DNA of 46,271 bases from contig JACPXM010000023.1 of NCBI GenBank assembly GCA_016196545.1, positions 1-46,271 of the forward strand. Direction: 5' to 3'. Each line of letters opens with the position of its first letter. Positions within the stretch are counted from its first letter, which is position 1. Made by a program: the position numbers and the translations under genes. Shown one piece after another: positions 4,750-46,271 of this stretch. This DNA comes from Candidatus Omnitrophota bacterium (GTDB lineage: Bacteria > Omnitrophota > Omnitrophia > Omnitrophales > Aquincolibacteriaceae). Below the pieces are notes generated by a model. The model had not been told where the DNA came from. It ran no database searches and saw only the letters and a program-made list of their open reading frames with translations.

Positions 4750-5787
4750 ATGAACAAAATGAGAGCAGTGGTTTTAGAAAATCACGGCGATTTTGAAAAC
4801 CTTCAATACACTTATGTGCCCCGGCCGGTTCCCGGACCTGAGGAAGTTCTGATTAAAGTGCGCGCCTGCGCCTTGAATCATCTCGACCTCTGGACACTCA
4901 AGGGAATGCCGGGCGTTAAAATCTCCTTCCCCCATATTCTAGGATGCGACATCGCCGGCGAAATCGCGGAAATGGGAAGCCGGGTCAAGGGTCTTCCCAC
5001 CCGCCGGCCGGTGATTGCCTCACCGGGAATTTCTTGCGGTAAATGTTCCCACTGCAAGTCAGGGTGGGACAGCCTTTGCGATCACTATCGGATTGTGGGA
5101 TTTCAAATCGATGGTGGCTTTGCCGAATATGTCAAAGTTCCGGCACGCAATGTGATACGGGTCTCCCGCAAACTAAGTTTCGAGGAGTGGGCCGCCGTCC
5201 CCCTTGTTTTCCTGACGGCGTGGCATATGCTCGTCACGCGGGCCCGGCTTCAAAAAAGGGAAAAAATCCTGATTCACGCGGCCGGAAGCGGCGTGGGGTC
5301 CGCCGCCCTTCAAATTGCGAAACTGCTGGGGGCCCATGTTATCGCCACCGTGGGAAGTGATGAAAAAATAAAGCGCGCGAAACATCTGGGCGCGGATGAA
5401 GTCATTAATTATGAAAAAAAGGATTTCCTTGCCGAGATCAAGAAAATCACCCACGGCGCAGGCGTGGAGGTTGTCTTGGAACATATCGGCCCCGCCACAT
5501 TCTCCAAAAGCCTCGCCGCGCTTTCCAAAAAAGGAAGAATGGTCACCTGCGGCGCCACAAGCGGCCCCCTTGCAAATCTCGATCTTCGGTTTCTCTTCGT
5601 GCGCCAGCTCTCGGTCGAGGGTTGTTACATGGGGGGCCTAGAAGAACTTCGAAAAATCATCCGGCTCGTCCGGAAAAAGAAACTCAAAGCCGTGGTCGAT
5701 AAAGTTTTCCCTTTGAGAGAAGCCAAATCCGCCCTCCAGCGCATGCAGGACCGGGAAAATTTTGGGAAAATTATCCTCGTTCCTTAA
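4750..5787 (+). CDS. zinc-dependent medium-chain dehydrogenase/reductase (alcohol dehydrogenase or quinone oxidoreductase family)
   Basis: Structural-zinc motif CGKCSHCKSGWDSLC, catalytic region ILGCDIAGEI, and Rossmann motif AAGSGVGSAALQ. Confidence 0.85.
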   Translation: MNKMRAVVLENHGDFENLQYTYVPRPVPGPEEVLIKVRACALNHLDLWTLKGMPGVKISFPHILGCDIAGEIAEMGSRVKGLPTRRPVIASPGISCGKCSHCKSGWDSLCDHYRIVGFQIDGGFAEYVKVPARNVIRVSRKLSFEEWAAVPLVFLTAWHMLVTRARLQKREKILIHAAGSGVGSAALQIAKLLGAHVIATVGSDEKIKRAKHLGADEVINYEKKDFLAEIKKITHGAGVEVVLEHIGPATFSKSLAALSKKGRMVTCGATSGPLANLDLRFLFVRQLSVEGCYMGGLEELRKIIRLVRKKKLKAVVDKVFPLREAKSALQRMQDRENFGKIILVP

Positions 5788-11148: not shown

Positions 11149-12208
11149 GGGTCTTTTTTTCTATGTCTTTAAACAGTTCATCCACCAGTTTTTCTTCCTC
11201 CACCACGCGGTGCTGCTTGCCGTCCAAGTAAATCATGCCTTTATCTTTGCCGCCCGTGATACCAAAATCGGATTCATGGGCCTCCCCGGGGCCGTTGACA
11301 ACACAGCCCAGCACAGAAATCGTCAGCGGATCTTTGAGTTTTTGCGCGCGGCTTTCCACTTCGTTGGCCAGTTTTAAAACATCCACTTCCGCGCGGCCGC
11401 AGCTCGGACAGGAAATCACGCGAACGCCTTTGCGAAGCTCAAGCGCTTCCAGAATCATCTTGCCAACTTTGATTTCCTCGACGGACTCTGCCGTCAGAGA
11501 AACTCGAATCGTGTCTCCAATACCCTCCTGAAGCAAGGTTCCAATACCAATGGCATTGTAAATGGAGCCGCGGAGCAAAGTCCCGGCCTCGGTCACACCC
11601 AAATGTAAAGGATAGGGAAAAGTCTGGCTGGCAAGCCGGTAAGCAGCCACCATGGTGGGAACGTTCGAGGCCTTGAGCGAAATAATAATGTCGTGAAAAT
11701 CAAGTTCTTCTAAAATCGCGACGTGGCGCTTCGCGCTTTCAACCAAAGCTTCGGGCGTGGGACCGAATTTTTCCATCAAATCTTTTTCGAGAGACCCGCC
11801 GTTCACGCCGATGCGAATCGGAACGCCCCGCTTTTTTGCCTTTTGCACGATTTCAACCGTATATTCCCTTTTTCCGATATTTCCGGGATTAAGGCGAAGT
11901 TTATCCACGCCTTCATCAAGCGCGATTAAAGCGAAACGGGAATTAAAATGAATGTCGGCGATAAGCGGGATTGTGATTCTCGATTTAATCTTTCCAAGGG
12001 CGCGTGCATCGGCCTCCGTAGGCGTCGCCACACGCACGAGCTCACAGCCGGCCTCGGCGAGCTGGGCAATTTGATCGACCGTCGCTTCCACATCACGCGT
12101 GTGTGTCGTCGTCATGGATTGAAGGCGCACCGGGGCATCGCCCCCTAGCGTGACGCTGCCGATTTTGACTTGTCTTGTCTTTTTTCGTGGTGATTGCATA
12201 GGATTCAT
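11141..12208 (-). CDS. ispG: 4-hydroxy-3-methylbut-2-en-1-yl diphosphate synthase (MEP pathway)
   Basis: 355 aa. The GcpE pattern is present: VRLQSMTTT, RINPGNIG-like LRLNPGNIG, CPSCGR and GCVVNGPGE. Confidence 0.93.
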   Translation of the reverse strand: MNPMQSPRKKTRQVKIGSVTLGGDAPVRLQSMTTTHTRDVEATVDQIAQLAEAGCELVRVATPTEADARALGKIKSRITIPLIADIHFNSRFALIALDEGVDKLRLNPGNIGKREYTVEIVQKAKKRGVPIRIGVNGGSLEKDLMEKFGPTPEALVESAKRHVAILEELDFHDIIISLKASNVPTMVAAYRLASQTFPYPLHLGVTEAGTLLRGSIYNAIGIGTLLQEGIGDTIRVSLTAESVEEIKVGKMILEALELRKGVRVISCPSCGRAEVDVLKLANEVESRAQKLKDPLTISVLGCVVNGPGEAHESDFGITGGKDKGMIYLDGKQHRVVEEEKLVDELFKDIEKKTQT

Positions 12209-39407: not shown

Positions 39408-39718
39408 AAAACTCCCTTGAAGTAGCCTAATCTTTCATCTAATCAAAGCGTAATGTAAGTTTTGTTATTTGTCAAAAAATTGAGTCAAATAGAGTGTGCC
39501 ATAAATATACAATTTGAAACCTCTTTGGCGATGAAAAAATCCATTGAAAAACATGCCCGCTCTAAAAAAGATTGAGAATCAAATGAAATAGAAGCGGGAT
39601 GCAAGCGAAGGCCCAGATTTAAATCCCGGAAAATTTTTGGCATTTTCATTTTTATGCCTTTCATTTTTGAATGCTGAATTCTATTAAAATGCCGGCGAGA
39701 CCAATGCCGGCGAGACCA

Positions 39719-39747
39719 TTGACCCTTACTATCGCCTCGCATATAAT
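39719..39747 (+). promoter_or_regulatory. promoter TTGACC-17-TATAAT for tRNA-Asn
   Basis: Hexamers at 39719-39724 and 39742-39747. The tRNA 5' end lies 27 nt downstream of the -10. Confidence 0.6.
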
Positions 39748-39773
39748 CGGTCCCAATCTGCTGGAATCTTCAT

Positions 39774-39846
39774 TCCCCTGTAGCTCAGTTGGTAGAGCGG
39801 CACGCTGTTAACGTGCATGTCCGTGGTTCGAGCCCACGCGGGGGAG
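39774..39846 (+). tRNA. tRNA-Asn (anticodon GTT), CCA not encoded
   Basis: Hand-folded cloverleaf: acceptor tcccctg/cggggga, D arm gctcagttggtagagc, anticodon loop ctGTTaa, T arm cgtgg-ttcgagc-ccacg, discriminator g. Confidence 0.9.
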
Positions 39847-39960
39847 ACTCATAAAAAATGCCGGAGGCCTTAAGGTCTTCGGCATTTTTATTTAGGTTTT
39901 CCCCCGCGAGTCCTGATCTCCCAAAATCCCTAATCAAAATTAGGGCACGCGGGGGAGCCA
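39841..39960. repeat. direct repeat copy 1 (120 bp, identical to 44397-44516); candidate att region
   Basis: Base-by-base comparison of the two copies shows no mismatch. It spans the last 6 nt of the tRNA, the terminator, a dyad-symmetric segment and the last 21 nt of the recombinase ORF. Confidence 0.9.
39853..39889. terminator. bidirectional intrinsic terminator downstream of tRNA-Asn and recombinase 1
   Basis: aaaaaatgccggagg-cctt-aaggtcttcggcattttt: a stem flanked by an A-tract and a T-tract. Confidence 0.7.
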
Positions 39961-41571
39961 ATACATCCTCTCATCAAACCGAGAGGATAACGAAAAACCG
40001 CCAGAGCCAGTCTTTCCAGACTGCTTTGGCGGTTTTTTTATTTCAGGAAGATTGTAAAACTGAATCTTGAGTTTCGACGGCTCCTTGTGATAGACAATCT
40101 TCTTGATAAGCAGGTGCAGTAAATCCCGCTGCTTTTCAAAGGTGAGCTGCGTAAAAACCATCTTGAAATACTTGAAATTGCGAGAAATGGCTTGAGGGTC
40201 AATAATTTTCTGTTGCTCTTGAGCGATTTCTTCGTCCATCTCATTTAATTTTTTCTCCAACACGATCTTTTGTTCTTCCAAAGGCTTTAACTGTTCTTCA
40301 ATCAAAGAAAACCGCTTCCTACCGTAGGCTTTTAACCAGGGCTGCGCTTGTCTTTCGATTTTGGTTAATTGTGCGACGATTCGCTTTCTCTCCGTGCGAA
40401 GACTGGTTAATTTTTGCTTTGAAATCTTGATGGCTTGTTTAACGATCTTCTGAATAAGTCCCTCTCGTTCCGAAAGGAAACTGATTCGGTCAATTACGAG
40501 TTGTTCCAGAGTTCTGGCGGAAACACGTCTGATTTCGCAAGCCGTCCGATCCGCATGACCAACTTTCGTGCATTGATAATACAGGTACTTCTTACCGCCT
40601 TTGATGGAGGAGTTGTGCGTCATTTGTGACCCGCAATGACCGCACCATATCAAACCTGTAAGCAACAGTTGATGAATGTTCTGGCTGATCGAAGTTCGGT
40701 GGACGGTATTGGATTTGATGATCTGTTGGACTCGACTAAATAATTTTGTATTGATGATCCCTTTCCACTGAGCAGGAAACGATTTTTCATGCGTGCCTGT
40801 ACGCCCGATGTAGTAAAGGCTTTTTAGCATGTTCATGATCATGACTTCGGTGAATTTCTTCCCGCCTCGATGAACACCCGATTTCGTCTTCCAAATTTTG
40901 GTTGTATAACCGTTTTTGTTGCAGTAAGTCGCAACAAGATTGCCTGATTGAATCTCAACATACTTGCGGAAGATGAGGCGAGCCAGTGGGATTTCTTCTT
41001 GGTTCGGTTTAAGGACGCCTTTTTCGGTGGGATGGAGATCAAAGCCAAGTGGAATTGAGCCACCGTGAAACAGTCCTTTGCTTGCCCGAAACTGCATTTT
41101 GTCTCTGGTGCGTTCGGATGCCAATTCTCGCTCGTACTGCGCAAACCTTAACACGATGTCGAGATGTAATCTGCCCGTTGATGAAGCCGTGTTAAATTCT
41201 TGCGTTGCGGATGCGAGTTCAATCCCAAGTTTCTGTAATTCCTCCCAAATTTCATAAAAGTGTTTGAGGCTGCGGGTAAAACGGTCAATCGCTTTGACAA
41301 CAATCATGTCGAACTTACCAAGTCTTGCGTCCGCAAGAAGACGCCTAAAAGCAGGACGCACAAGGGTTCCGCCTGAAACATTTCTATCATCGTATCGGGT
41401 TGGGACGAGCGTCCAACCATTTTCCTCATGCAGCCCGATGTAATCTTCGCATTTTTGCCTTTGCGCTTCGATGGTATCAAAAGGACTGATCTCGCTTTTT
41501 TCTTGATCAGATGTTCTGGTGTAAACGACGCATCGGTAATTCTTCTTTGTCTTATCGCTCGATAGAAACAT
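39940..41571 (-). CDS. large serine recombinase (element 1)
   Basis: Catalytic motif VVYTRTSDQ...DTIEAQRQ, resolvase core DMIVVKAIDRFTRS, recombinase domain, Zn-ribbon CGHCGS...CTKVGHADRTAC, and a coiled-coil C-terminus. The last 7 codons (6 sense codons plus the stop) lie in the direct repeat. Confidence 0.9.
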   Translation of the reverse strand: MFLSSDKTKKNYRCVVYTRTSDQEKSEISPFDTIEAQRQKCEDYIGLHEENGWTLVPTRYDDRNVSGGTLVRPAFRRLLADARLGKFDMIVVKAIDRFTRSLKHFYEIWEELQKLGIELASATQEFNTASSTGRLHLDIVLRFAQYERELASERTRDKMQFRASKGLFHGGSIPLGFDLHPTEKGVLKPNQEEIPLARLIFRKYVEIQSGNLVATYCNKNGYTTKIWKTKSGVHRGGKKFTEVMIMNMLKSLYYIGRTGTHEKSFPAQWKGIINTKLFSRVQQIIKSNTVHRTSISQNIHQLLLTGLIWCGHCGSQMTHNSSIKGGKKYLYYQCTKVGHADRTACEIRRVSARTLEQLVIDRISFLSEREGLIQKIVKQAIKISKQKLTSLRTERKRIVAQLTKIERQAQPWLKAYGRKRFSLIEEQLKPLEEQKIVLEKKLNEMDEEIAQEQQKIIDPQAISRNFKYFKMVFTQLTFEKQRDLLHLLIKKIVYHKEPSKLKIQFYNLPEIKKPPKQSGKTGSGGFSLSSRFDERMYWLPRVP

Positions 41572-41591
41572 AAATCACCTCAAAATTTGGC

Positions 41592-41620
41592 TTGACTCTT
41601 TTCTTCATGAGTGTACACTC
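41592..41620 (+). promoter_or_regulatory. candidate promoter TTGACT-16-TACACT with an overlapping 12-bp perfect palindrome (gagtgtacactc) in the divergent region of element 1
   Basis: Hexamers at 41592-41597 and 41614-41619. The palindrome is at 41609-41620. Confidence 0.4.
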
Positions 41621-41632
41621 GTCGTAGACACG

Positions 41633-42292
41633 ATGCAAACCAAAGAATATCAAGGCTCACTCCTCTACACCGCAAAAGACCTCTTGAAAAAAGCAGGCGT
41701 TGGTAGAAGTATCGGCACAAGAACCTTCGAGTATCTGCGGGATAAACTGCAAATTTTGCCGAAGCCTCTCAAGATCGCTCAACCTCATGGGCGTGGGACG
41801 GTCGGTTTTTACCCCGCTGAAACAGTCAAGCTCCTGCAACGACTTGAGAAAGAACGCCAGAAGGGGAAAACTTATCCAGAACTGGCGATTGATTTGAGAC
41901 AGGAAAGCGAGCAAATCCGAGCGAGGGCAAGTGAACTGCGGAAGCAATACGAGGGCGAAAAAAAAGCCTTGCGACGGTTATCGCATGGTTTGATTTCAGA
42001 TCAACATCCCGCCGAAGGTATCAAACCACTAACTAAAAGCAAGGGTGCAATAGGAAGTGACAGCATCCAAACAAAAGAAGCCGTGGCTCTTGAGATCAGG
42101 AATGTGACGGATGATCTGAAGGATGAGATCAAGAGACTTCTGTCTGCCTGGGATGGCAAGGATGTTGGAAAATTGCAAGGCGTCAGAGAGAAAATTGAGG
42201 AATTGGAGCATCTTGAAGGTGTGAGGACTGAGCAGGAGGTTTTTGAGAGGGTCAAAGGAGCGTTGAAGTCCAAAAATGGCAAACGACGGTGA
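41633..42292 (+). CDS. hypothetical DNA-binding/coiled-coil protein (possible MerR-like HTH; candidate directionality factor)
   Basis: The N-terminus YTAKDLLKKAGVGRSIGTRTFEYLRDKLQILPKP...FYPAETVKLLQRLEKERQKG is HTH-like, and the rest is a charged coiled coil. It is divergent from the recombinase. The function is inference only. Confidence 0.4.
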   Translation: MQTKEYQGSLLYTAKDLLKKAGVGRSIGTRTFEYLRDKLQILPKPLKIAQPHGRGTVGFYPAETVKLLQRLEKERQKGKTYPELAIDLRQESEQIRARASELRKQYEGEKKALRRLSHGLISDQHPAEGIKPLTKSKGAIGSDSIQTKEAVALEIRNVTDDLKDEIKRLLSAWDGKDVGKLQGVREKIEELEHLEGVRTEQEVFERVKGALKSKNGKRR

Positions 42293-42336
42293 ACTGTCAC
42301 GAAATGTAAAGGCAATGATAAGGAATTGTAAAGGTT

Positions 42337-42762
42337 ATGGAGAGCATGGAAGTAAAAGACAAATTTTTGACGTTGCGGGCGCAAAATCTCAGCTACGCCA
42401 AAATCGCTGAGCAGCTTGGCGTCAGCAAACAGACCTTAATCGCTTGGAGCAAATCGCTACGAGTCGAAATTGGCAATTTGCGGGCAATTCATCTTGAGGA
42501 ACTGCAAGAAAAATATCACGTGCTTCGAGCAGGAAGATTGGAACTTTTCGGGCAGCAGTTACACACCGTTACGGAAGAACTCAAGAAGCGTACTTATGCA
42601 GACGTTCCCACAGATAAGTTGGTTGAAATGTTTATCAAGTTTGCACAAATTCTTAAACAGGATGACAGCGGTCTTTTGTTTATCGAAGAAAAAATGAATA
42701 ACGAAACTGACATTGAAGACCTTACGATGGATATGAGCCAAAAAAGGAAATGGGAAGCATAA
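42337..42762 (+). CDS. small HTH protein (hypothetical)
   Basis: LRAQNLSYAKIAEQLGVSKQTLIAWSK is a clear HTH, followed by a coiled coil. Confidence 0.55.
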   Translation: MESMEVKDKFLTLRAQNLSYAKIAEQLGVSKQTLIAWSKSLRVEIGNLRAIHLEELQEKYHVLRAGRLELFGQQLHTVTEELKKRTYADVPTDKLVEMFIKFAQILKQDDSGLLFIEEKMNNETDIEDLTMDMSQKRKWEA

Positions 42763-42792
42763 CCAAAACTTTACCGTTTTTTGACCAAGTTT

Positions 42793-42954
42793 ATGCAAAT
42801 CGATTACTCACCGACTGAACGATTGGCTTTGATCGTAGATATTCTCGCCGAAGGCGTGATTGCTCTTTCGGCTGTGATGAATCTCTTGGAAGCCTTTGAT
42901 CGCCTTAAAGTTAAAGAGTTTGTTAAGATTGAAATTATGCGGTCAGACTTATAA
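42793..42954 (+). CDS. 53-aa hypothetical ORF sharing a motif with the ORF upstream of recombinase 2
   Basis: MQIDYSPTERLALIVDILAEGVIAL... versus ...LTPEERLSRIVHILALGAIRLA at 46114-46271 (12 of 20 identical by eye). It is below the ORF-track size cut-off. Confidence 0.35.
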   Translation: MQIDYSPTERLALIVDILAEGVIALSAVMNLLEAFDRLKVKEFVKIEIMRSDL

Positions 42955-43020
42955 ATTTCAAAATGTGAAGGAAATCAATCACAAGCCGATGAATCTTACA
43001 CAGGATAAGGGCTGAAAAGC

Positions 43021-44268
43021 ATGGAAAACTGGGTATGTGTAGGAGAATACTTGAGCCGACAAGAAGCCGAATTTATTCAGTCGCTTCTTAACGGTAAAGG
43101 TATTGAGGCAATGATCTCTGCCGACGATCTCGGTGGAATGAGACCGCATTTATCAATGGGCAAGGCGGTTAGACTTTTGGTTGCTCCAAAAGATTCCGAG
43201 CGAGCAGTCAAGATTATCAAAACTTCAGAAAACATTAAATCTGAGGTCAAACTCCGAAACAAAAGTTATGTCCCAACGTTCATCCTCGTAACAATTTTAA
43301 TCGGACTTGGACTTTTCTTGGGGCGGGAGGTTTATCGGAATTTACATGAAGTAAAAAAGACTTATTATGAAAATGGTTCACTCAAGGCGGAATGGCTTTA
43401 CTCGAATCATCGGTTACACGGAGTGAGCAAAGGATACCATAAAAATGGCGCCTTGAAATTTGAAGCTCTATACAAATTTGGAACCATTAGCGGTCCAATC
43501 AAAACCTATAATTCAAACGGAAAAATTGCTGCAGAATTTCATTCGGTTGATGGAAAAGTTGAAGGTCTTAAAAAAACTTATTATGAAGGTGGTTCGCTGT
43601 GGACGAAGGAAAATTACAAGGCGGATAAATTAAATGGTTTGAGTCGAGAGTATTACCAAGATGGTACGTTGTTGGCGGAATCAAATTATAAAGACGATAA
43701 GCTGGTCGGAGTCTCTAAGACTTTTTACAAGACTGGAACCATAGAATCTGAACTGCGATCGGAGGACGGCATCAGTAAGGCATTGAAAACGTTCTATCCA
43801 TCAGAGAAAACCAGGCTTGAGTGTGTCTATGAGCAGGTCAATGATAAAACGATTGAGAGTTGTAAAGGATTTGCCGAATCAGGAGAGACAGCAAACGGTC
43901 TCGTCAAAGCCTATTTTCCAGATGGCAAAGTGGAATCGGAATTTCAGTATATCGAAGGCATCCCTCACGGAGATTTTAAGAAGTACTATGAGAATGGAAA
44001 CGTGAAGTCAGAAGCTCACTTTGAACATGGCAAGATGCATGGAGCAATGAAGGAATACTACGAATCTGGAAAGTTGTGGCGAGAATGGAATTACAAGATG
44101 GGCATGTTAGACGGCCCGTCTAAGGAGTATTACGAATCTTCTCAGCGGGCCGTTGGCGAAGCTCATTATGTCGATGGGAAATTAGAGGGCAAGGCGGTTT
44201 CCTACGATGAATTTGGAGAAGTTGCCGATCAAGTCACATACAAAGCGGGTGAATTGGTTCAAAGTTAA
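43021..44268 (+). CDS. DUF2007-like N-terminal domain + one TM helix + about 11-12 MORN-variant (YwqK-like) repeats
   Basis: The N-terminus WVCVGEYLSRQEAEFIQSLLNGKGIEAMI resembles DUF2007. The TM helix is VPTFILVTILIGLGLFLG. It is followed by repeats such as KTYYENGSLKAEWLYSNHRLHGVS and KEYYESGKLWREWNYKMGMLDGPS. Confidence 0.7.
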   Translation: MENWVCVGEYLSRQEAEFIQSLLNGKGIEAMISADDLGGMRPHLSMGKAVRLLVAPKDSERAVKIIKTSENIKSEVKLRNKSYVPTFILVTILIGLGLFLGREVYRNLHEVKKTYYENGSLKAEWLYSNHRLHGVSKGYHKNGALKFEALYKFGTISGPIKTYNSNGKIAAEFHSVDGKVEGLKKTYYEGGSLWTKENYKADKLNGLSREYYQDGTLLAESNYKDDKLVGVSKTFYKTGTIESELRSEDGISKALKTFYPSEKTRLECVYEQVNDKTIESCKGFAESGETANGLVKAYFPDGKVESEFQYIEGIPHGDFKKYYENGNVKSEAHFEHGKMHGAMKEYYESGKLWREWNYKMGMLDGPSKEYYESSQRAVGEAHYVDGKLEGKAVSYDEFGEVADQVTYKAGELVQS

Positions 44269-44396
44269 AAATCTCTGCCCCATCTCTCCCCCCTCTTAAC
44301 CCTATCATCTGCAATAAGTTGCACCTCTCCCTTCGCACGTCTGAGAATTTCAAATTGAAACTCGTCTTGAAATGTGTTTTGATCTGACAGTGTCAC

Positions 44397-44516
44397 GGGG
44401 AGACTCATAAAAAATGCCGGAGGCCTTAAGGTCTTCGGCATTTTTATTTAGGTTTTCCCCCGCGAGTCCTGATCTCCCAAAATCCCTAATCAAAATTAGG
44501 GCACGCGGGGGAGCCA
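44397..44516. repeat. direct repeat copy 2 (120 bp, identical to 39841-39960)
   Basis: See copy 1. It is preceded by gtcac, an imperfect mimic of the tRNA 3' stem cacgc. Confidence 0.9.
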
Positions 44517-46154
44517 TTTTGTACGCTCATCAAAACTGACCTTGTCGCCTTCTACCTCGAGATCAAGCTCGGGGAGAGGGCGCAGGGTCATTTTGATTTT
44601 AGAGGGGTCTTGGTTGTAAATGATCTCTTTGATGAGGAGTCTTAGCCGGTCTTTCTTTTCGTTGGGCGTGAGTTTATCAAACACTGCGTCGAAGCGCTGG
44701 AGATTGTGGCGAATCACATCAGCGTCAATCATCCGGCCTTCAAGGCTTTGGAGCGACAGTTCAATATCGGCAAGCCTTTCTTCTGCCTTTTGTTTCTTTT
44801 CCTGCAGTTCGTCCAGCCGGTCTGTAATAAAGCTGTTGCGGGAACCGTTCTTGTGAGCGCCTAAAGCATTGACCAGTTTCTTGGCTTCTTCGTCGGTTTT
44901 ACGGATTTCTTCCTGAACACGCTTTCTGTCCTCCCTTAATGGCCCAAAGGCTTTGACCGAGGATTCCTGCGCATCTTTCACAATGGCTTCGACTACTTTC
45001 TTATTCTGACCGAGAAATGACAATCGCTTCACGATCAGATTTTCAAGCTCTTTCGCGGGAGCGCTTTTGACGGAGCAAGCGTCTTTGTCATTCTTATTAA
45101 CCTTCGTGCATTTGTAATAAAAATATTTCCTTCCTCTTGAGTAAGCAAAGTTAGGCGTCATAAAAGACGCGCATACTTTGCAATGCACAAGTCCCTTCAA
45201 GAGGAAATCATGTTTATCCTGATTTGCCGAATGATGAGTGCCGTTATTTTGGCTGAGAAGCTTCTGGACTCGGTTGAAAAGCGTTTCATCAACAATGGCC
45301 TTATGCTCGCCGGGAAAAAAATTGTCTTTATACCGAAGCTGTCCGATATAAAAAGGATTTCTCAGGATTTGGGCAAGATTGGACTTATTATACCGGCTGC
45401 CGCCTTTCTCAAGCCCTGCCTTGTTAATCCATTGTTTTAGGCGGTAGCCGCGTTCATTCAATCGTTTGGCCGTCTTGCCAAGGGATTTTTCTTTGAGATA
45501 AAAAAGAAATTGATCTTCTGCCTGCCTGGCTTCGCTTTTATTCAGGACCAGCTTCCGGTTTGCCGAATCAATGTCATAGCCAATGACCGGCATTCCACCT
45601 GCCCATTTGCCTTTTTGAATCATGGCGATGCGTTTGTCCCGCGTCCGTTCGCTGACCAGCTCGCGCTCAAACTGAGCAAATCCCATCAGCATGGTTTGGA
45701 AAATCCGCCCGATTGAAGTCGAGGTATCGAATTGCTGAGTGACGGAAACAAAAGCAACGCCGTGCTTATCAAAAAGATCGAGGATTTTGACGAAGTCTTT
45801 GATGTTCCGACTCATGCGGTCGTATTTGTAAGCCACAACTATCTGAACTTTTCCCTGACGGATGGCGGCAAGAAGATGTTGCAAGGCGGGCCGATTCGTA
45901 TTGCCGCCGGAATAAGCAGGATCGTCAAAGCGTTCGGGGTAAAGCTGCCAGCCTTCGGCCTTCCGGCTCTTGATAAACGACTCGCAGGATTCCCTTTGCG
46001 CATCGAGTGAAGTAAAATCTGAATTGAGATTTTCATCCGTGGATTTGCGGGTATAAACAGCACAACGCTTGATTTCTAGTTTTTGGCTCACAGCTTTGTC
46101 CCTGGGTTTTGTGTTAGGGAGTGTGAGCATAGCCTTTAAATTTTGGACTGTCAA
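44496..46154 (-). CDS. large serine recombinase (element 2)
   Basis: CAVYTRKSTDENLNSDFTSLDAQRESC, resolvase core QIVVAYKYDRMSRN, Zn-ribbon CKVCAS...CTKVNKNDKDAC, and a coiled coil. The start is either TTG at 46154 or ATG at 46130. It is clearly diverged from recombinase 1 except for the identical last 21 nt. Confidence 0.9.
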   Translation of the reverse strand: MTVQNLKAMLTLPNTKPRDKAVSQKLEIKRCAVYTRKSTDENLNSDFTSLDAQRESCESFIKSRKAEGWQLYPERFDDPAYSGGNTNRPALQHLLAAIRQGKVQIVVAYKYDRMSRNIKDFVKILDLFDKHGVAFVSVTQQFDTSTSIGRIFQTMLMGFAQFERELVSERTRDKRIAMIQKGKWAGGMPVIGYDIDSANRKLVLNKSEARQAEDQFLFYLKEKSLGKTAKRLNERGYRLKQWINKAGLEKGGSRYNKSNLAQILRNPFYIGQLRYKDNFFPGEHKAIVDETLFNRVQKLLSQNNGTHHSANQDKHDFLLKGLVHCKVCASFMTPNFAYSRGRKYFYYKCTKVNKNDKDACSVKSAPAKELENLIVKRLSFLGQNKKVVEAIVKDAQESSVKAFGPLREDRKRVQEEIRKTDEEAKKLVNALGAHKNGSRNSFITDRLDELQEKKQKAEERLADIELSLQSLEGRMIDADVIRHNLQRFDAVFDKLTPNEKKDRLRLLIKEIIYNQDPSKIKMTLRPLPELDLEVEGDKVSFDERTKWLPRVP

Positions 46155-46271
46155 TATTGGCTTTCAAAACGGGCCTATTCTTTTCGCTGTCAGCCAGGCG
46201 GATTGCTCCCAAGGCTAGGATATGCACAATCCGGGAAAGCCTCTCCTCCGGCGTGAGATCATCGGGATCAT
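46114..46271 (-). CDS. partial small ORF upstream of and overlapping the recombinase 2 start
   Basis: The open frame reads DPDDLTPEERLSRIVHILALGAIRLADSEKNRPVLKANIDSPKFKGYAHTP*. The N-terminus lies outside the window. Confidence 0.35.
   Translation of the reverse strand, partial: DPDDLTPEERLSRIVHILALGAIRLADSEKNRPVLKANIDSPKFKGYAHTP

Follow-up and report, generated by a model that had tools for sequence, protein, structure and literature searches.

The stretch analysed here, called the window throughout, is the entire 46,271-nucleotide contig JACPXM010000023.1 of a Candidatus Omnitrophota bacterium (assembly GCA_016196545.1), and near its right end a tRNA-Asn gene is followed by a perfect 120-bp direct repeat in which the genes of two different serine recombinases terminate. 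This repeat is probably the boundary module of a tandem array of integrated elements at the tRNA-Asn 3′ end, the elements ending at the hexamer GGGGAG and the two recombinases sharing the tail that this arrangement gives them. On comparison with related loci, the repeat is a 111-bp unit, here called U, plus 9 nt (the GGGGAG core and CCA) that are common to all these elements, which would account for it in structure, not in origin. Both proteins end in WLPRVP* because each open reading frame (ORF) passes at the core from the arm of its element into an identical arm of U.

The repeat at the tRNA-Asn 3′ end

Exact-repeat comparison found positions 39841-39960 and 44397-44516 identical at 120 of 120 bases, with differing neighbouring bases on both sides; the chance expectation for such a repeat in 46 kb is about 6e-64. 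A first-pass annotation, made from the letters of the window, had described this repeat, and much of its description is borne out: the match is perfect and does not extend at either end, it starts with GGGGAG as the final 6 nt of tRNA-Asn (the Rfam tRNA model ends at 39846), and the last 21 nt of each recombinase ORF lie inside it and give both the identical C-terminus, in which WLP is encoded antisense to the tRNA 3′ end. The two elements are likewise stacked, and each has a serine recombinase (of the large type, by its Pfam domains); attachment-site material is present within the repeat, and an identity of 120 bp does exceed what a serine-recombinase crossover leaves. Target-site duplication was ruled out as the source of the repeat, since serine recombinases make 2-bp staggers. 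The repeat and its parts are as follows.

39841..39960: repeat copy 1 (120 bp), made of core GGGGAG, unit U and CCA
44397..44516: repeat copy 2
39774..39846, + strand: tRNA-Asn(GTT), with T-loop GTTCGAG at -15 to -9 from the core as a B-type half-site
39841..39846, + strand: core copy 1 (GGGGAG), the final hexamer of the tRNA with its discriminator base
39847..39957, + strand: unit U copy 1, with trailer ACTCAT, terminator, dyad and an orphan 12-mer ending in core copy 2
44403..44513, + strand: unit U copy 2; its last 6 nt (44508-44513) are core copy 4, where element 2 has its left crossover
39854..39889: intrinsic terminator hairpin in U, flanked by an A-tract and, on the opposite side, a T-tract (-24 kcal/mol, z -6.8)
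39900..39956: dyad in U, with 18-nt arms at 39900-39917 and 39939-39956 that are 83% complementary
39946..39957, + strand: orphan tRNA-end copy CACGCGGGGGAG, whose final 6 nt are core copy 2 and the site of the left crossover for element 1

The tRNA-Asn gene is 73 nt long under the Rfam tRNA model (64.3 bits; ARAGORN gives 39773-39848) and does not encode CCA. By its sequence, the junction of tRNA, core and trailer at core copy 1 looks like an unoccupied attB. The 12-mer CACGCGGGGGAG is found at 39835-39846, 39946-39957 and 44502-44513, and a shortened tRNA-end copy, CAC-GGGGAG, lies at 44394-44402 ahead of repeat copy 2; the first-pass annotation had rightly taken the 12-mer for an exact copy of the tRNA end, although it placed that end one base off, at 39836-39847. 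The orphan copy in U, read antisense, encodes L-P-R-V of the first recombinase, and CCA comes next.

The unit has a period of 111 bp from GGGGAG to GGGGAG and carries no recombinase. Its left part is ACTCAT and the terminator, which the terminator scan called on the + strand only, and its right part is the dyad and the orphan 12-mer. The dyad folds at -29.4 kcal/mol (z -4.8) around an inner 7-bp hairpin at 39928-39945, and the tRNA 3′ end recurs inverted, as TCCCCCGCG, in the left dyad arm. Searches against Rfam gave no tRNA match for the dyad, only sub-threshold microRNA-type hairpin matches, and it is therefore not called a pseudo-tRNA gene.

The left part of U resembles the sequence found 3′ of an identical tRNA-Asn end in element-free relatives, which were located by searching GTDB genomes with the 21-mer of the tRNA 3′ end. 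Four such loci (L009, L014, L016 and L017) have the same tRNA end without CCA, followed by an A/T-rich stretch and a terminator hairpin, the trailer of L009 reading TTTTCATAAAAAAGGCCGC... The earlier proposal that the repeat rebuilds the tRNA end is thus not upheld: here the tRNA is intact, and its trailer and terminator are like those of the element-free relatives. A second route to the orthologous element-free locus, through the SseB-like neighbour gene in GTDB genomes, found none.

Copies of U elsewhere were not recovered. The 120-mer is absent from 16 loci in GTDB species representatives with the same tRNA end, a trailer/terminator 23-mer had no match in Joint Genome Institute (JGI) metagenomes, a hairpin 21-mer had none in viral contigs, blastn of U against 103 loci matched nothing beyond the tRNA end (12-15 nt) and short chance words, no U-like unit was found in L027, and an exact-protein look-up of the 58-aa ORF across U gave no record. 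Nor is U part of the attachment (att) sites of relatives, and it is missing from close relatives of both elements (L001, L002, L003, L004 and L105). Of the suggestion that the repeat is a shared element-borne att arm, what stands is the last 9 nt, GGGGAG and CCA, which are element-end sequence; the other 111 bp are a separate unit that those five loci do not have.

Element ends and the crossover core

By domain content and catalytic residues, the two recombinases, LSR1 and LSR2, are large serine recombinases (LSRs). Both have the Pfam domains Resolvase, Recombinase and Zn_ribbon_recom, with PF00239 (resolvase) at E values of 8e-32 and 5e-37 and with PF07508 and PF13408 above cut-off in each, and the catalytic-domain residues Y17, R19 and S21, the serine nucleophile among them, are invariant in 25 sequences. 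The two proteins share 36% identity, and exact-protein look-ups of either returned no record. The genes and the ends of the elements that carry them are located as follows.

39940..41571, - strand: LSR1 ORF, 543 aa, the last 7 codons including the stop lying in the repeat
44496..46154, - strand: LSR2 ORF, 552 aa, its 3′ coding region forming a 35-bp hairpin and U-tract on the tRNA-sense strand (about 44524-44600)
39958..44402: element 1, 4,445 bp including one core, with LSR1, a 219-aa and 57-aa protein pair, a helix-turn-helix (HTH) protein, a MORN/DUF2007 protein and a tail-coding P arm
39965..40043, + strand (tRNA-sense): P′ arm of element 1, a hairpin with loop ATCAAAC (the F-D codons of FDER) followed by a strong terminator
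44265..44396, - strand: P arm of element 1 ("tail exon"), 45 open codons from L-P to the stop
44397..44402, + strand: core copy 3, the right crossover of element 1, an attR of P1 arm, GGGGAG and trailer
44514..46271: element 2, truncated where the contig stops; the right end AAAAGTTTGATAGGCGTCGTCCTC/GGGGAG/ACTCAT... is known only from metagenome contigs (slashes mark junctions here and below)

Homologues of these recombinases end in peptides such as WLPRLGSNQ, WLPREDSNLGHSGY and WLRAQDSNL, which are antisense translations of tRNA T-arms, the W codon TGG being CCA in reverse complement; tRNA-antisense tails such as ...WLPREDSNLG were present in 25 of the 65 homologues classified. The canonical arrangement is an attL in which tRNA-Asn, ...GGGGAG/CCA/, runs straight into the 3′ end of an antisense LSR1-type gene (L002 and L003). 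The same convergent overlap of LSR and tRNA gene occurs with tRNA-Asn in L010 and L097, with tRNA-Gln in L028, L029 and L032, and also in L105, a 162-kb chromosomal contig. Both recombinases of the window are, on this comparison, members of an LSR clade whose attachment site overlaps the end of its own gene, W-L-P being the antisense of GGGGAG-CCA.

In L001 an LSR1-type gene is found in the other configuration, ...GGGCAGTGTCAC/GGGGAG/CCA-LSR. There, by blastn, the homologues of window positions 44343-44402 and 39951 onward are contiguous and overlap only in GGGGAG, so that element 1 extends over 39958-44402 with its crossover within GGGGAG. The right junction of element 1, GTGTCAC/GGGGAG/ACTCAT followed by the terminator, makes 44376-44408 a normal attR (arm, core, tRNA trailer), and GTTTTGA at 44376-44382 is a P-type half-site motif at -21 to -15. 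At its left junction, element 1 abuts the right arm of U and not a tRNA, and element 2 begins alike. The junctions in the window are accordingly tRNA/core/trailer, U arm/core/CCA-LSR1, P1 arm/core/trailer (attR) and U arm/core/CCA-LSR2. For the LSR2 type, a far-end arm AAAAGTTTGATAGG(C/G)GTCGTCCTC/GGGGAG with the same core was found in L004/L005, L006 and L105, which are 96%, 87% and 76% identical to LSR2 or its element, respectively, and the right end of element 2 agrees with the P arm of the L006 element. For the type of element 2 (E2), the left arms in L006 and L007 (tails WLHESYSRTTVF and WLPEEHSKTPVF) were considered as attP and ruled out, as L006 and L004 both have the E2-type P arm at the opposite element end. 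Within GGGGAG, the crossover most likely lies at GA, which is the symmetry centre of GTTTGAT-N13-GGGGAG-N15-ATCAAAC in the aligned sites.

Half-sites, dual coding and the C-terminal tail

A GTTYGAK-like motif, GTT(T/C)G(A/T), was present at -20/-21 from the core in all ten P arms, and the P′ arms have ATCAAA at +16, so that attP fits GTTTGAT-N13-GGGGAG-N15-ATCAAAC. In tRNA arms the T-loop GTTCGAG takes the corresponding place at -15 in five of six and at -14 in the remaining one, for which a read end is the only source; the motif of the tRNA arm is thus 5 bp nearer the core than that of the P arm. A 5-bp shift between attP and attB half-sites is the spacing rule of LSRs, as established in work on the LI integrase. 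The right half of the target, the tRNA trailer, had no conserved motif among the aligned arms. The dyad in U, which the first-pass annotation had offered as a candidate attP, was discarded as an att site of these recombinases: the half-site motifs of the family do not match it, neither arm having GTTYGAK or ATCAAA at the right spacing.

Coding sequence does double duty in three places, the first being W-L-P as the tRNA end. In the P′ arm, the codons for the conserved FDER (TTT GAT encoding F-D) contain the half-site motif CTCATCAAA(A)C at 39970-39980 and 44526-44536, and this half-site motif is palindromic with the GTTTGAT of the far-end arms. Within the LSR1 linker EIKKPP..SGG, an intrinsic terminator is found antisense to the gene at 39992-40043 on the + strand (z -9.5). 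Equivalent terminators occur in L002 (about 11530-11580) and L003 (about 4965-5015) with different stems and the structure kept (z -6.7 to -9.5), and the 35-bp hairpin and U-tract of LSR2 lie at the same place. In a canonical insertion the tRNA is joined directly to CCA and the antisense 3′ end of the recombinase gene, which carries a terminator for the tRNA, and the P arm ends up beside the old tRNA trailer; the tRNA therefore gains an encoded CCA and a new terminator from the recombinase 3′ end.

In the excised form, the recombinase ORF continues through the core into the P arm and gains a conserved tail of about 33 aa. An in-frame tail after W-L-P is encoded by the P arms of five LSR elements (those of the window, L001, L004, L006 and L105); these tails are 33-43 aa long and follow the pattern ..Q(N/T)TFxDEFxFEIxLxxKG.., and in four of them the stop follows exactly 35 codons. 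P0008 has a tail of this kind too. The P arm of element 1 is in frame with the core L-P and reads VTLSDQNTFQDEFQFEILRRAKGEVQL..., 43 aa after L-P, as the tail of the element 1 (E1) type, and the E2-type tail reads EDDPYQTFLEDEFVFEIALATKGQKRL... Hence LSR1 is predicted to end in ...WLPVTLSDQ...RDF* (43 aa after WLP) if excised and in ...WLPRVGSNHGHAR* if joined to the tRNA of the window, and as found it ends in ...WLPRVP*. Read together, these frames place attP within the recombinase ORF, such that integration removes a conserved C-terminal segment of about 33 aa. The conservation of the tail is partly that of a DNA motif (Q-N being CAAAAC), and the remainder reaches past the normal half-site.

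Tandem arrays and islands in other genomes

Tandem arrays of such elements were found in L004, L006, L016 and L105, and in L105 and L006 the LSR elements stack directly on one another with no spacer. L004, L006, L016 and L017 also hold recombinase-less islands that have arms of their own, and L018 a 165-bp mini-island, so that island sizes at the same tRNA-Asn end range over 0.17-2.8 kb (0.9-2.8 kb in L016, L017, L004 and L006). Island positions are as follows.

L016 (reverse complement): 2444, 3308 and 5237
L017: 7109
L004: 15784, 16861 and 18554
L018: about 186

In L016, L017, L004 and L018, the islands start with trailer/terminator-like sequence and end in a conserved arm ..CCAGTTGCGAAAGTCG(A/T)CCAC../GGGGAG, which in antisense encodes ..DFRNWL... 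A reiterated identical unit was not found in the arrays and islands of L004, L006, L016, L017, L018 and L105.

These islands bear on two other accounts of U. It could be borne by the elements themselves, the mobile unit being U, recombinase and cargo with an attP of the form P arm/GGGGAG/ACTCAT..., which would regenerate a native-looking tRNA end with trailer and terminator and leave a reusable site for the next element. Such a unit would account for the intact-looking tRNA/core/trailer junction and for the alternation of U and elements; the direct arrays in L006 and L105 show that insertion beside residents occurs, and the islands led by trailer and terminator in L004, L016, L017 and L018 fit it as well. 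This account is nevertheless improbable, because the excised form of the E1-type element in L001 joins the P arm to CCA-LSR with the tail in frame, because relatives of LSR2 at 96% (L004) and 76% (L105) identity occur without U, and because P arm/core/trailer is an attR by composition, the intact tail exon of element 1 predicting excision between 39952-57 and 44397-402. U might also be a miniature non-autonomous element mobilised in trans, with three insertions at the tRNA core that each followed the arrival of a recombinase element. All six junction types would be expected from successive insertions at the tRNA core, and the small recombinase-less islands at the same tRNA offer precedents of 165 bp and upward. 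Set against this are the absence of the family half-site motifs from both U arms, the unlikelihood of a 111-bp circle as an intermediate, and the fact that U bears the host's own 12-nt tRNA end and was not found elsewhere, which make a miniature element slightly more improbable still.

The likely array in metagenome assemblies

Logan contigs (k=31) of groundwater runs were used to follow the repeat in the source community. All junctions of the window (tRNA to repeat, end of element 1 to repeat, repeat to LSR1 and repeat to LSR2) were recovered in three runs, that of the element 1 end being carried by a 1,813-nt contig (L104), and in four runs the repeat forms a hub. Three left partners were seen: the tRNA, the end of element 1 and an E2-type P arm identical to that of L006. 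There are at least three right partners, namely LSR1, LSR2 and a third ORF (..CCATTATCTCTACCCTCCCATCAAGGCG.., with ATCAAG at +20 and the frame shifted by one, in runs X1-X3), plus one odd sequence in one run. The latter is a 168-nt contig of run X3 that consists of the E2-type arm, U(1-112) and AGTGTCACGGGGCGGGTTAAAACCAGCCAG; its right-hand sequence (U 1-112 and AGTGTCACGGGGCGGGTTAAAACC...) was sought in the window and is absent from it.

The depth of the repeat unitig was 17.9 in run X2 as compared with 5.5-10.6 in its flanks, roughly 2-3 times as high, and depth reached 73 at the LSR2 3′ end, several related elements being present in the community. In the same community, LSR2-like genes are joined canonically to another tRNA-Asn (...CCCTGGTTCGAGCCCAGGG/GGGAGCCATTTTGT). 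A contig of run X3 skips 137 bp (46053-46189) around the LSR2 start, a deletion variant in the population.

The order tRNA-U-E1-U-E2-U-... is likely on this evidence. The two copies might in principle come from a single repeat node that was collapsed or mis-threaded, and their tandem order be unreal. In favour of this, no Logan contig spans the repeat into unique sequence on both sides, the window contig ends 117 bp after LSR2, and the community has several related elements and a depth of 73 at the LSR2 3′ end. An artefact of this kind is highly improbable, given that each junction was independently reproduced in the k=31 assemblies of three runs, that the raised depth of the repeat points to several copies, and that an alternative threading would still leave the repeat common to two different elements.

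History of the unit

Were element 1 excised precisely at its cores, two U copies in tandem would be left behind, and excision of element 2 would do likewise by the read evidence. The predicted excised joint of element 1 is GTGTCAC/GGGGAG/CCAATACAT. As excision leaves two tandem U copies, integration into a U/U junction is favoured as the history with the fewest events: each element would have arrived by one LSR integration into ...TTAGGGCACGCG/GGGGAG/ACTCAT.., a reiterated secondary landing site whose empty form would read ...TTAGGGCACGCGGGGGAGACTCAT... One possible origin of the duplication of U would be slippage between the 12-bp repeats that lie 111 bp apart.

Homologous exchange, which the first-pass annotation had also suggested, stays in contention for the multiplication of U without being the favoured account. 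A U-bearing circle of element 1 could have recombined, in the Campbell manner, with a U between the tRNA and element 2, duplicating U, and the same route, or unequal exchange or gene conversion among U copies, could have assembled the array and made it uniform. "P1 arm-U-LSR1" and "tRNA-U-LSR2" have precisely the repeat, and nothing longer, in common, and one crossover would duplicate exactly that. All U copies are 100% identical, as compared with 36% for the recombinases, the half-site motif missing from the right arm of U makes its site-specific use doubtful, and 120 bp is enough for RecA-type recombination. However, three right partners meet U exactly at the core and CCA, which implies that each element first acquired U at the core; close relatives (L001-L004 and L105) are without U; and a circle junction was not seen in the contigs. 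We regard the homologous route as possible but the less likely of the two, and the preference for the landing-pad route, integration into U/U, over homologous recombination is only a weak lean.

Several points weigh against a boundary module filled by site-specific integration. The right arm of U keeps the 10 core-proximal bases of the tRNA arm without GTTYGAK at B- or P-type spacing, and would thus be a poor half-site by prediction, while the perfect tRNA/core/trailer site at 39835-39852 is unoccupied. The crossover position was inferred from sequence comparison and symmetry. No second genome with U, from which its origin could be traced, was found in JGI metagenomes, viral contigs or the 103 loci. 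Because unique sequence never flanks the repeat at both ends of a Logan contig, it is the window assembly that decides which left partner goes with which right one, and a 4,556-bp circle (U and E1) plus a chromosome with tRNA-U-E2 fits the same graph. Finally, neither an empty U/U junction nor an excised circle was seen in the contigs, which do drop rare forms.

More speculatively, and with a probability that we consider low, U could be a novel sort of attachment-site cassette, a reiterated landing pad and insulator that multiplies behind the tRNA, captures different LSR elements off the tRNA, gives its neighbours a terminator and leaves a 3-aa RVP* stub in place of the conserved 33-aa tail or the tail of a neighbour, locking the stacked elements; the clade would then use an integration-dependent tail switch that controls activity or direction.

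Other features of the locus

The first 39 kb of the window are ordinary chromosome with the nuo operon, ThiC, RtcB, PolX and cydAB, and the window being the whole contig, element 2 is cut by its end. The remaining features of the locus are listed below.

39719..39747, + strand: promoter-like site of tRNA-Asn, TTGACC-17-TATAAT (11/12)
41633..42954, + strand: accessory genes of element 1, encoding proteins of 219 aa, 141 aa (HTH) and 57 aa
43021..44268, + strand: cargo of element 1, a 415-aa protein with an N-terminal DUF2007 and many MORN_2 repeats

The 219-aa protein (41633-42292, no Pfam match) and the 57-aa protein (42781-42954) are kept beside LSR1-type genes in L001-L003, and this pair forms the core module of a small element type of 4.4-5 kb; either protein could be a candidate directionality factor or regulator. 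A look-up of the MORN protein returned only the 1,813-nt Logan contig mentioned above. A 15-bp tandem repeat (ATGCCGGCGAGACCA twice) at 39690-39719 adjoins the -35 box of the tRNA-Asn promoter and may be a candidate regulator binding site.

Implications

The locus and its relatives reveal a widespread LSR clade in uncultivated bacteria that targets the last bases of tRNA-Asn or tRNA-Gln, and whose features are an att site in its own C-terminal codons (FDER..WLP), a terminator for the tRNA antisense to its coding sequence and the loss of a conserved tail on integration. Serine integrases are the workhorses of large-DNA genome engineering, and tRNA-targeting LSRs would have highly conserved natural landing sites. 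For annotation, it follows that C-termini such as ...WLPREDSNLG are antisense tRNA and that "conserved" protein motifs here are partly DNA signals. The questions raised concern the tail as a control of direction, the reuse of occupied sites and the nature of the 111-bp cassette.

Comparison with known systems

The locus resembles Islander-type islands of tyrosine integrases in its integration at a tRNA 3′ end with the gene restored, in the integrase beside the tRNA and in direct repeats of the tRNA 3′ fragment. An island lying between a tRNA and a repeat of its 3′ fragment, as in Islander, is what was found here (39835-46; 39946-57; 44502-13; shortened at 44394-402), and in Islander tandem arrays every member has its own tRNA fragment (PMC4383910). 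Unlike Islander islands, both integrases are serine and not tyrosine recombinases, the window ORFs being without a systematic tyrosine-recombinase screen; the true crossover repeat is 6 bp, and the 120-bp repeat is a separate cassette and not the attP/attB identity block of the relatives. According to the 2014 reference database paper, which gives the standard view, tRNA genes are the targets of tyrosine integrases, and serine integrases take protein genes or intergenic sites (PMC4383910); the word "tRNA" is absent from the main LSR survey and discovery paper (PMC10083194). No published description of an LSR clade targeting tRNA was found in our literature searches, and a later report is possible.

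The array is not an integron: each unit has its own serine recombinase, and the repeated unit matches no Rfam family above threshold. In staphylococcal cassette chromosome (SCC) and SCCmec islands, elements with Ccr serine recombinases and recombinase-less pseudo-elements lie in tandem at the rlmH 3′ end, separated by repeated integration-site sequences. The present locus is like such composite islands in its tandem stacking behind a conserved gene, and in the stacking only; it has one recombinase per element instead of a ccrAB pair, tRNA-Asn instead of rlmH as its target, and a repeated unit of 111 bp with terminator and dyad instead of a site of 15-20 bp.

In protein architecture there is a likeness to the integrases of phiC31, Bxb1, A118/LI and TP901-1, with which LSR1 and LSR2 share the set of Resolvase, Recombinase and zinc-ribbon domains. 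The att architecture is consistent with that of phage LSRs: in the comparison of attP, attL and attR sites the putative identity of attP and attB is 6 bp, attP would be quasi-palindromic with distal motifs and the attB motif lies 5 bp nearer the centre. Unlike in phage LSRs, the target here is the last nucleotides of a tRNA gene and neither a protein gene nor intergenic DNA, its right half is without a conserved motif, the elements stack in tandem, and attP lies inside the integrase ORF, so that integration swaps the C-terminal tail. In Mx8, in which IntP becomes IntX, and in SSV1, attP is likewise in the integrase gene and integration alters the integrase 3′ end, Mx8 also targeting a tRNA gene. 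The change of the 3′ end of the integrase ORF on integration is thus shared with Mx8 and SSV1, which use tyrosine recombinases, whereas here it is a serine integrase that loses a conserved tail of about 33 aa.

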